25,804 nt of DNA from a virus (Duplodnaviria; Heunggongvirae; Uroviricota; Caudoviricetes). Both the position numbers and the translations under genes were made by a program. The DNA lies in the IMG/VR virus record IMGVR_UViG_2897352509_000001; one strand, given 5' to 3'. This document shows, one piece after another, positions 9,703 to 11,893 of the stretch (its first letter is position 1; each line of letters starts with the position of its first letter). Under the pieces are notes generated by a model. That model ran no database searches. It worked only from the letters and a program-made list of their open reading frames with translations, and had not been told where the DNA came from.

Positions 9703-9764
9703 CGGTCTCGAAAACCGGAGTAGGGGCAACTCTACCGGGGGTTCAAATCCCCCTCTCTCCGCCA
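9703..9764 (+). other. tRNA-Ser(CGA) 3' fragment (serU-like, anticodon arm to CCA), probable prophage right attachment-site remnant
   Basis: CGGTCTCGAAAACCGGAGTAGGGGCAACTCTACCGGGGGTTCAAATCCCCCTCTCTCCGCCA matches the 3' ~62 nt of E. coli serU as recalled. No complementary 5' acceptor strand (GGAGAGA) occurs upstream, so this is not a complete tRNA. Confidence 0.75.
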
Positions 9765-10346
9765 CTTTATCAATGACTTATCTCCCGACTTCCCGTCTTG
9801 CTTTTCCTAAACAGAACAATCGTAGAATATTCTTGAAGGGTTAGATCGTCACTGTTTTCTGTTCGATACTGTGACATTCAGCACTTGATTCGCTATGGAT
9901 CTGACAGGAAGGTTTTGAGCGAAAATCTGCAGTTATTCAGTCGTTTTCTTATCGGTCACCATTATTCTTTTAGACATTGATCCTACAAAGCTGCCGCAAA
10001 GTTGGTGGTGGGAACTGAAGTTGCGTAGAGAAGGGGTCAATACCCGGAGGCAAACATGGGCTGGCAAAAGTGTAGCGGTATTAGGCGCAGCTATTTAGCC
10101 TAGTTATGTTTTATGAAAACTTGATATCATATAAGTGTCTTACTTATTGGCTGTAAATAAGTTTTTCCTAAGGAATTGTTTCTTGAGTATCATTTGTAAC
10201 TGTAACGGAATTTATAATCCTTTGCTTTATTGTTACGGTATTTTTTATCACACCCTATTTTTAGTGGTTTTTTATACTGAAGTTTGGCAAAGTGAACTTT
10301 ATATACATATACTTCATCCTGGTTTCAGTTAAATTGGGGGGATGAT

Positions 10347-11090
10347 ATGGCAACTACATGTTCAGTTATATTGATTTTGGAGTCCTTTGATGTTTATTTC
10401 GGAAAAGAGAGTGTGTTTCTGGAGAGAGGTTCATCTGTACTTGTCGACTCTAGCTCTAGAGATTTTTTCCTGACATATCCTGAAAGAGTGATAGTGGCGG
10501 ATTTTGGCGCTGAGTTTATTAGTCGCTATTTGAAAGCTAATAACTTAAGGGATATTTCTGATTGTAGGGAATATCCATCTTATTTAAAAATAAACTTTGC
10601 TGACTTCAGTTTAATTAAAGGATTAATTAGTTGGGCTAATCACTGTGCTGAATACATAGAAATTTTTGATGAGTCTATTGCTTTTACATGTCTCTCTGCA
10701 TTTTCTTCTGAAAAACAATTTGGAGTATTTCTGTTTGGATGTTTGAAAAGCACAGGGGCTAAAGTTAAAACGATTATTCATACGGATTTATCTGCACCAT
10801 GGCGTCTTAAGGATATATCATCAAGATTATATCTCAGCGAAAGTTTACTAAAGAGGAAATTGAAAGAAGAGGGGGTATCATTCAGTAAGATCATACTTGA
10901 TGAGAGGATGCAAATGGCTGAATATTTACTCAGCACTCGTTGTTATCCTATTAGTAAAGTAGCTAAGGTCTGTGGTTATGCCAGTGTCTCATACTTTACT
11001 TATGTATTTAGACGTTATTTTGGTGTTTCTCCAAGTCAATACTCTCAGAGGAGTTCAGAAAGTAAAATTCTTACTCACCAGGGAATCTGA
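10347..11090 (+). CDS. AraC-family transcriptional regulator (AppY/GadX-like), in an AT-rich island
   Basis: 247-aa ORF with a C-terminal AraC-type double HTH (...ISKVAKVCGYASVSYFTYVFRRYFGVSPSQY). Low GC and a long AT-rich upstream region point to horizontal acquisition. Confidence 0.8.
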   Translation: MATTCSVILILESFDVYFGKESVFLERGSSVLVDSSSRDFFLTYPERVIVADFGAEFISRYLKANNLRDISDCREYPSYLKINFADFSLIKGLISWANHCAEYIEIFDESIAFTCLSAFSSEKQFGVFLFGCLKSTGAKVKTIIHTDLSAPWRLKDISSRLYLSESLLKRKLKEEGVSFSKIILDERMQMAEYLLSTRCYPISKVAKVCGYASVSYFTYVFRRYFGVSPSQYSQRSSESKILTHQGI

Positions 11091-11092
11091 TC

Positions 11093-11560
11093 ATTGTTCT
11101 TGCCCCCTTATTTCCAGACAGGGGGGGTATCTTAAGTTAACGTTACCCGCTGACGTCGATATTCTCGCGGAGAGCGATAACCCAACGCACTGTGCGGATG
11201 GTTTTCATTGTAATGTTCGATCGCCACTGCAAGATTATGCAATGCCGTTCTTACATTCGGTTTCGGCATGAACGCGATGTAGTCTTCCTTCATCGTTTTC
11301 ACGAACCTTTCTGCAATTCCATTACTCTGAGGACTGCTGATTGCCGTTGTGCAGGGCTCCAGATTCAACTCTCTGGCGAACTGCCGTGTTTCATGCGCTC
11401 TATACGCTGAACCGTTATCTGTCAGCCACTGGATGGACTGTTCCGGTACTTTATCGCCAAAGCGTTTTTCTATCGCTCCTAACATGACATCCTGCACTGT
11501 CGCTTTATCGTAACCTCCCGTGCTTGCGGCCCAGTCTATGGCTTCACGATCGCAACAGGC
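11093..11560 (-). mobile_element. IS2-family (IS3 superfamily) remnant: outer end plus the 3' third of the transposase gene
   Basis: The terminus ttgcccccttatttccagaca resembles the IS2 end. The minus-strand translation matches the IS2 InsD C-terminus (...TVQDVMLGA...WLTDNGS.YRA.ETRQFAR...[12 protein letters not shown]) and extends back to CCDREA with no start codon. Homology breaks at about 11560. Confidence 0.75.
11132..11497 (-). pseudogene. Truncated IS2-like transposase OrfB (C-terminal part)
   Basis: 121-aa [51 protein letters not shown]..., equivalent to the last ~125 residues of InsD; the upstream part is interrupted by stops. Confidence 0.75.
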
Positions 11561-11847
11561 TTAGCACAGAAAGATAGTCCGCTCCTCGCTCATAACAGAC
11601 ATTCACTACAGTTATAGTAGAAGGTATGCATGCTGAGTGGGGAAAGTGTGAAAGAAAAGAAGACTGCTGCGTCGTTTGTCGTCACGTTTATCTTCATTGG
11701 TTATGCAAGTCGTAATACAAGGTGGGACAAAACTGAGACACATAAGGCCTCACAATGGCTTGCAAGGCTTTACATGTTTTGATGTGGTGGGACGTGTGAG
11801 CGCAGTGTTGATGTGGTAATGCTTTGAATTAGAAACGGATTCTTATA

Positions 11848-11893
11848 ATTCGTAATGCGAAGGTCGTAGGTTCGACTCCTATTATCGGCACCA
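11848..11893 (+). other. tRNA-Thr(CGT) 3' fragment (thrW-like), left attachment repeat of the P4-like satellite
   Basis: ATTCGTAATGCGAAGGTCGTAGGTTCGACTCCTATTATCGGCACCA matches the 3' 46 nt of thrW as recalled; the 5' 30 nt of the tRNA are absent. Confidence 0.75.

Follow-up and report, generated by a model that had tools for sequence, protein, structure and literature searches.

Temperate phages can acquire cargo by imprecise excision and afterwards pass it on by mosaic exchange, a process found in textbooks. In lambda bio and lambda gal, an attR junction together with the adjoining host DNA lies in the phage genome at the place of attP, and the side carrying the cognate integrase has been lost. 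The DLP12 prophage of Escherichia coli K-12 shows another related arrangement, with an AraC regulator of the AppY/YdeO/GadX type placed in the non-essential appY-ompT-envY region beside a lambdoid attR. Both arrangements have a counterpart in a stretch of 25,804 nucleotides of Caudoviricetes DNA (IMG/VR virus record IMGVR_UViG_2897352509_000001; the whole stretch is hereafter the window). Here, a 3' fragment of the serine tRNA gene serU appears to form the core of a complete fossil attR, with P arm, core and B' flank, and an AraC-family regulator gene lies further downstream. Unlike lambda bio and lambda gal, the fossil holds only 278 bp of non-coding host DNA and no host gene, and its carriers have gained a different int/attP module and can still integrate. 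The carriers also form a stable natural lineage in hundreds of genomes, for which we infer the excision itself. DLP12 differs in its location at argU, and the part of it that was examined showed no tRNA fossil. The locus, both of its prophages and the regulator are already known, and the fossil is a clear natural case of the textbook process rather than a new kind of system. It provides unusually clean sequence evidence of temperate phages picking up and then trading cargo. The cargo is apparently a regulator of host physiology, PatE, concerned with acid resistance and with the control of type III secretion in enterohaemorrhagic E. coli. The cassette that carries it has kept an attR and 278 bp of its source chromosome, and is now present in deposited lambda-like phages and in prophages at at least three integration sites.

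The thrW locus of E. coli O157:H7 Sakai, in which thrW is followed by the lambda-like prophage Sp1, the P4-like prophage Sp2 and then yagP, is colinear with the window. Identity to Sp1 (CP-933H, O-island 7/8) and Sp2 (CP-933I) of Sakai/EDL933 is ~99% along the entire window. The original prediction, made from the letters alone, had recognized 3' fragments of two different tRNAs, serU-like and thrW-like, bracketing a regulator gene and an insertion sequence (IS) remnant. It had read them as a composite junction made by serial integration and IS-mediated rearrangement. Both fragments lie on the plus strand exactly where they had been placed, with 0 mismatches each (Table 1). We consider it probable that the two have separate causes, the thrW piece being the joint of a tandem integration and the serU piece a fossil attR that was captured by imprecise excision and spread by recombination. 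The anatomy, colinearity and distribution of the serU piece are observations, and from them we infer imprecise excision as its origin as well as the route of its spread.

The 62-mer CGGTCTCG...CTCCGCCA has a single match in the window and none in 100 shuffles. It equals nucleotides 29-90 of the 90-nt serU of E. coli C, from the anticodon stem to CCA, and the 5' 28 nt of the tRNA are replaced by unrelated DNA. Likeness to the bacterial chromosome continues past the tRNA into the spacer between serU and yodB. Of 5426 complete E. coli genomes, 5422 have a serU locus that matches the stretch from 9694/9703 to 10042 at 96-98% identity. The chromosomal spacer runs on to yodB, and the homology of the window ends at 10042. 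To the left of the core lies a phage arm of a type here called X, belonging to a myovirus-tailed lambdoid phage. This arm (9560-9702) differs from the P arm of ev099, mEp332 and TK3888.

An intact relative of this phage is present in MB15 as a 39-kb prophage between serU and yodB, with an HK97-type head, a contractile tail, pin-invertible tail fibres and a LEM-3-like gene in last position. As in the window, this gene adjoins attR. Positions 8011-10042 of the window are colinear with the right end of the MB15 prophage at 95% identity. A synthetic query that joined window positions 9450-10042 to the native spacer toward yodB found full or near-full matches in 7 complete genomes. The matches are chimeras of the LEM-3-like gene, the X-type arm, the serU core and a flank running on to yodB, and in MB15 the chimera is the attR of the prophage. 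At the MB15 attL, a different phage arm follows the complete serU and the 278 bp occur at attR only. Because other sequence stands after serU at attL, the 278 bp represent the bacterial B' rather than a phage P' arm. The serU piece does not resemble an attachment duplicate of a locally integrated element, as the 62-mer occurs once in the window and there is no local serU. Arm, core and flank are instead colinear with a genuine attR, the flank is host-derived and cut short in the phage, and the whole is carried in phage genomes. No cognate integrase of the serU type is left beside the fossil, and both the window integrase and lambda Int are only distant relatives of the MB15 serU integrase. The sequence thus marks the serU piece as the core of a fossil attR and not as an integration scar of the thrW locus.

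In Sakai, the complete serU lies at 2.71 Mb, 2.4 Mb from the thrW locus, and Sp14, a lambda-like prophage, occupies it. Compared with the serU flank that O157 itself has in the Sp14 attR, the fossil flank shows ~10 differing sites, which indicates that it was imported. Three serU 3' copies exist in the Sakai chromosome (NC_002695.2), namely the Sp1 fossil, the Sp14 attR and the complete serU, at ~308.4-309.1, ~2668.1 and 2712.2 kb. The Sp14 attR and the Sp1 fossil have ~340 bp in common, which identifies repeats of this length shared by the thrW and serU prophage loci of O157. The orientation of the Sp1 fossil is opposite to that of serU, making it a potential substrate for a large inversion. 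The Sakai annotation has no feature for the serU fragment or the host flank. In a limited literature search and in this annotation, no description was found of a fossil serU attR with host flank, or of an identical cassette in viable lambda-like phages.

The fossil attR forms the left part of a cassette that continues with a 56-bp end of an IS630-family element, the AraC-family gene and a 465-bp ISEc48 remnant. Joints involving IS elements had been predicted, and two IS remnants are indeed present, the IS630-family end joined to the serU flank and the ISEc48 remnant, whose terminal repeat begins 3-4 bp past the regulator stop codon. The latter had been described as a 5'-truncated IS2-family element 3 bp past the stop. 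Truncation, position and membership in the IS2 group stand, but the element is ISEc48 (96.4% identity to an ISEc48 copy) and not IS2. In common with IS2, the remnant encodes the C-terminal DDE region (positions 172-289 of the 301 in IS2 TnpB) and has an IS2-like terminal repeat. IS2 itself was ruled out as the source by a nucleotide identity of ~70% and by the fact that only the last ~465 bp, the 3' part, are left. The remnant belongs to the IS2 group of the IS3 family. A promoter and terminator scan of 9500-12050 gave no enrichment over shuffles, and one plausible promoter was found, in the AT-rich region ahead of the regulator (Table 1).

An exact 34-mer spanning the joint at 10042/10043 was found in 29 IMG/VR contigs and had 0 matches in the GTDB species representatives, which contain one genome per species, so that nothing in this set points to the joint beyond E. 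coli-type genomes. The serU core lies upstream of the joint in all 29 contigs, at normal spacing in 28 and interrupted by an IS insertion in the exception. The left arms are of two types only, the type of the window (21 contigs) and that of ev099 (8). All cassette copies carry flank variants at 9955 and 9986-9990, which most of the native loci compared do not have. The truncation of ISEc48 near 11558-11568 is common to both phage lineages. The cassette evidently arose once, as all copies share the flank variants and the ISEc48 truncation. Its place is a non-essential region between the tail-fibre genes and the working attP of the phage. In a sister thrW prophage of strain 2018-06-4CC (NZ_AP027889.1, positions 7600-10932 of the locus extract), the slot of patE is taken by a type II restriction endonuclease together with a DNA cytosine methyltransferase. 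The left junction of this restriction-modification cassette falls 22 nt into the serU core, just past the anticodon stem-loop. The presence of other cargo in the same slot marks the slot as a site of cargo turnover.

The block 9702-11558 recurs at 99% identity in the deposited lambdoid phages ev099, mEp332 and PhiR70_1 and in the argW prophage of TK3888. In ev099, an authentic lambda attP core (GCTTTTTTATACTAA) and the lambda int gene lie ~2 kb to the right of the block, hence the serU piece is not the working attachment site of this phage. Phage mEp332 was included among the lambdoid phages of E. coli K-12 quantified by quantitative PCR. To the left of the core, ev099, mEp332 and TK3888 carry an arm of a second type, Y, which is the arm found at the genuine serU attR of lambda-like prophages in O111:H8 and AVS0465. 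For the LEM-3-like gene and the X-type arm, the search among sequenced phages returned only a shared invertible tail-fibre region, so the X-type fossil is known only from prophages. Full-length myovirus-tailed thrW prophages with the cassette exist, SZQ1 being one example. Because the block is 99% identical in phages with other attachment sites, the cassette most likely came into this locus as part of an Sp1-type phage genome. The same recurrence contradicts the suggestion that a third element once integrated at this locus and left only the regulator, which is cargo of the phage. Neither nested prophages nor second serU cores were found in the 29 IMG/VR contigs.

The open reading frame between the fragments encodes, as had been proposed, an AraC-family protein in AT-rich DNA, with 35% GC in the coding sequence and 29% upstream against 44% in the window. 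The domains HTH_AraC (60.7 bits) and HTH_18 (58.4 bits) both score over their cutoffs. Full-length identity to the DLP12 regulator AppY is only 28%, and the C-terminal part of EnvY, also of DLP12, reaches 39%. Against the YdeO model it reaches 148 bits, the cutoff being 348. These values point to a homologue and not an orthologue of AppY or YdeO, and the label AppY-like given by the prediction is fair as a family resemblance only. Positions 9400-11558 show no difference from Sakai, including ECs_0287, and Sp1/CP-933H has no other AraC gene. In EDL933, PatE is Z0321, a gene described as a putative regulator of prophage CP-933H in O-island 8. PatE has been reported as an AraC-like, RpoS-dependent activator of the acid resistance genes gadE, gadBC and hdeAB, and as a negative regulator of LEE (locus of enterocyte effacement) genes. 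ECs0287 is induced at entry to stationary phase, in line with the RpoS-dependent Z0321, and AppY, PatE and PsrB all activate the GAD acid-resistance system. The regulator is the working gene of the cassette and, if the identity with PatE holds, would by published work activate gadE/hdeAB acid resistance and lower LEE expression. AppY, EnvY, PsrA/B and PatE, all of them AraC regulators, are encoded in lambdoid prophages close to the attR end. Such shared placement fits a cargo gene and not a relic of a separate element.

The thrW piece has a simpler explanation. The 46-mer ATTCGTAATGCG...GGCACCA matches the window once and was not found in shuffles. It corresponds to nucleotides 31-76 of the Sakai thrW, from the anticodon loop to CCA, with 46 of 46 nt identical, and the 5' 30 nt of the tRNA are replaced by unrelated DNA. 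Its 3' end matches the complete thrW and tyrosine integrases are encoded nearby at 1-789 and 12005-13237, as expected of an attachment duplicate. In strains with a single prophage next to yagP, the arm 11577-11847 again stands to the left of a thrW 3' fragment. Sp2 is bounded on its right by a third thrW 3' end, a degenerate one reading GGTTCCTATTATCGCACCA with indels (Table 1). With the Sp1 arm to the left, a P4-like integrase to the right and the third copy closing Sp2, the thrW piece can be recognized as an ordinary attR/attL joint of two elements integrated in tandem at thrW, a degraded lambdoid prophage of Sp1 type and a P4-like satellite prophage of Sp2 type. The prediction of serial integration consequently holds for the thrW piece as the Sp1/Sp2 joint. 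It does not hold for a serU-targeting element at this locus, given the 278-bp host flank and the arm of a genuine serU attR. Circularisation of Sp1 and Sp2 has been reported not to be possible. Part of the thrW-type arm (11724-11805) recurs in the ompT-envY spacer of K-12 DLP12 and near the end of an icd-associated prophage in UM146, and appears to be a sequence common to the right ends of lambdoid prophages.

We suggest a history of the cassette that would begin with a lambdoid prophage resident at serU. This prophage might have excised imprecisely, in the manner of lambda bio, or by an equivalent illegitimate recombination, and would have taken along attR and 278 bp of host DNA. The illegitimate joint would have fallen in an IS630-family element beside an AraC-family cargo gene. 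The side with the cognate serU integrase was presumably lost, and int/attP modules of lambda or thrW type would have replaced it. The integrases now accompanying the fossil are only distantly related to the serU-type integrase. A later exchange at or within the 340-bp core-plus-flank segment seems to be required, given that the cassette is the same behind both phage arms and that the two switch precisely at the edge of the core. Such an exchange may have been mediated by an integrase or have gone through homologous recombination with a prophage resident at serU. The cassette could have moved in this way into two phage lineages using other integration sites (thrW, lambda attB and argW). A myovirus-tailed phage with the cassette may then have integrated at thrW and decayed to Sp1 in the O157 lineage.

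Several points weigh against such a history. A synthetic query placing the cassette behind an intact serU (mtfA-serU plus cassette) had 0 full-length matches in the 5426 complete genomes. A full IS630 element next to the regulator, which would represent the state before the deletion, likewise had 0 matches. As no intermediate was found, the step of excision and illegitimate joining is reconstructed and not observed. The occurrence of the same cassette with two arms, switching exactly at the core boundary, needs a second event. Single-nucleotide polymorphisms in the 340-bp segment include a single class-diagnostic site (9927), and they do not distinguish homologous from integrase-mediated exchange. 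Furthermore, the equation of ECs_0287 with Z0321 and PatE rests on position, backed by the stationary-phase and RpoS expression data.

Among the alternatives, a third mobile element could have integrated locally at a serU-like site and been eroded by IS elements to the regulator and a serU 3' scar between Sp1 and Sp2. Tandem integration does happen at the thrW locus, and two tRNA 3' fragments of the same orientation do bracket an AT-rich gene and IS debris. We nevertheless regard a local third element as extremely improbable. The locus has no serU, the complete gene being 2.4 Mb off in Sakai, and the fragment is followed by 278 bp of chromosome from downstream of serU, which would not be brought by a local integration. 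The DNA to the left of the fragment is colinear with the right end of an intact serU prophage, and the block is found again in deposited phages with a lambda attP and in an argW prophage. Transfer in the reverse direction would make the serU piece and the 278 bp a genuine attP with its P' arm, and the E. coli spacer an ancient, fixed phage remnant. The identity between phage and chromosome does extend well past the tRNA, which is unusual for an attP/attB pair. This explanation is very unlikely in view of the MB15 lysogen, which has the 278 bp at attR only and other sequence at attL, and of ev099, whose working attP and int are those of lambda, 2 kb away. The phage copy is moreover cut by the IS630 end, and the chromosomal copy reaches yodB in nearly all complete genomes (5422/5426).

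Two independent captures would be a further way to account for the two arms. The patE gene with its IS630 and ISEc48 debris would once have stood 278 bp downstream of a chromosomal serU, and prophages with X and Y arms would each have taken it. This would explain why the arm in each lineage is the cognate one and reaches precisely to the edge of the core, but the arrangement that it presupposes was found in none of the complete genomes. The ISEc48 truncation common to both lineages is also not expected from separate excisions, and we consider two captures unlikely. The capture of a single fossil attR, followed by exchange, accordingly remains the reading that we prefer. Tentatively, the fossil might not be inert, its 340 bp of core and flank acting as a portable recombination site, through homologous exchange with any serU prophage or through a serU-type integrase such as that of Sp14 in O157, though we find this rather doubtful. 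If so, the site would let the patE cassette and whole late-gene arms swap between phage lineages, and would account for two unrelated arms joining one cassette exactly at the edge of the core. Chromosomal rearrangement between the O157 fossil, as a secondary site, and the Sp14/serU locus could then also occur. No nested integrations supporting an active site were found in the 29 IMG/VR contigs.

Neither fragment is a complete tRNA, which agrees with the original prediction; a complete functional tRNA, named there as the finding that would overturn it, was not detected. ARAGORN found 0 tRNAs in the whole window, and no tRNA reached the gathering score of Rfam. With permissive settings, a covariance scan of 9550-12000 gave only sub-threshold hits to tRNA-Sec (27.5 bits, cutoff 47) and to tRNA (19.1 bits, cutoff 29), both without acceptor stems. 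Both pieces are short of a full cloverleaf with a paired acceptor stem, and they have no tRNA function. In one copy of the fossil (IMGVR_UViG_2537561945_000005, 5275-6948), the T-arm of the serU fragment is interrupted by 1.35 kb of inserted DNA, presumably an IS, from which it follows that the fragment is under no tRNA constraint. An Rfam match to Plastid-psbl-rps4 on the minus strand of the serU piece was below threshold and was dismissed, being probably tRNA-Ser-like sequence read antisense. For annotation, the fossil is a warning against taking every tRNA fragment within a prophage as the boundary of an element.

Table 1. Features of the window discussed in the text, ordered by position.
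Feature	Coordinates	Strand	Basis or remark
Sp1-type integrase (thrW type), truncated by window start	1..789	-	Pfam Phage_integrase, 1.8e-47
LEM-3-like GIY-YIG gene (ECs_0285 homologue), last right-arm gene of X-type phage	8750..9523	-	Pfam LEM-3_GIY-YIG
P arm (X type) of serU-type attR	9560..9702	+	95% identical to and colinear with MB15 prophage right end
serU 3' fragment (62 nt, anticodon stem-loop to CCA), apparent core of fossil attR	9703..9764	+	
Host DNA, apparently captured: 278 bp of native serU-yodB spacer (B' flank)	9765..10042	+	Alignment to E. coli C
Last 56 bp of IS630-family element, including terminal inverted repeat	10043..10098	+	Joined to serU flank
AT-rich region (29% GC) upstream of regulator, with one promoter-like site (10284-10313)	10099..10346	+	
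AraC/XylS-family regulator, 247 aa; Sakai ECs_0287, most likely PatE (Z0321)	10347..11090	+	HTH_AraC, HTH_18
ISEc48 3'-terminal remnant (IS3 family, IS2 group), 5' side truncated	11094..11558	-	rve_3 domain
P arm of Sp1 thrW-type attR	11577..11847	+	Precedes thrW 3' fragment by yagP in cM2a and 2018-06-4CC
thrW 3' fragment (46 nt), Sp1 attR / Sp2 attL	11848..11893	+	Sp1/Sp2 boundary placed here in Sakai annotation
P4-like Sp2 integrase	12005..13237	+	Arm-DNA-bind_3, Phage_int_M, Phage_integrase; Sakai intS ECs_0289
Degenerate third thrW 3' copy, Sp2 attR, followed by native thrW downstream flank	24761..24779	+	

The comparison of synteny that had been proposed as a check located both full tRNA genes, serU with Sp14 in Sakai and thrW just outside the window. 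Position 1 falls inside the Sp1 integrase, and by colinearity with Sakai the complete thrW lies ~15 bp before it (window 1-1392 matches 5920-7312 of the Sakai locus extract, in which thrW occupies 5830-5905). In the Sp1 part, window and Sakai have in common thrW, the integrase, cI/cro, truncated O/P, tail fibres, pin, ECs_0285 and ECs_0287. In the right part, they share the partial ISEc48 copy, the thrW repeat and the P4-like Sp2 up to yagP. The sole large difference from Sakai is an extra insertion of IS629/IS1203 type at 1393-2707. This IS3-family element interrupts the ECs_0273 homologue, the matches on its two sides overlap by 4 bp, and it contains an ALIL frameshift pseudoknot at 2253-2369 (minus strand).

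Sakai and the window also diverge, on a smaller scale, at 11559-11647, where the patch that separates the ISEc48 remnant from the thrW phage arm has 31 differing positions in 90 bp (27 mismatches plus indels). The patch has no close full-length match in the 5426 complete E. coli genomes, the best being 90.7% across 11500-11850. From 11586 on, the window is closer to the arms of cM2a and UM146 than to the Sakai arm, and the pattern suggests a local gene-conversion patch.

Two further observations concern the prophages themselves. Within a lambda O-like replication pseudogene, positions 4993-5100 contain five direct repeats that are iteron-like, ~18 nt long (TATCCCTCAAAACGAGGG and variants) and spaced by 20-24 bp, and that resemble a lambdoid replication origin. 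In Sp2, Rfam matches above gathering score occur within 19757-20003, namely isrK at 19770-19847 and C4 antisense RNA at 19916-20003. The a1/b1 targets of the C4 antisense RNA are found at 19757-19809, and together these elements make up an immunity RNA system of the P4/P1 type.

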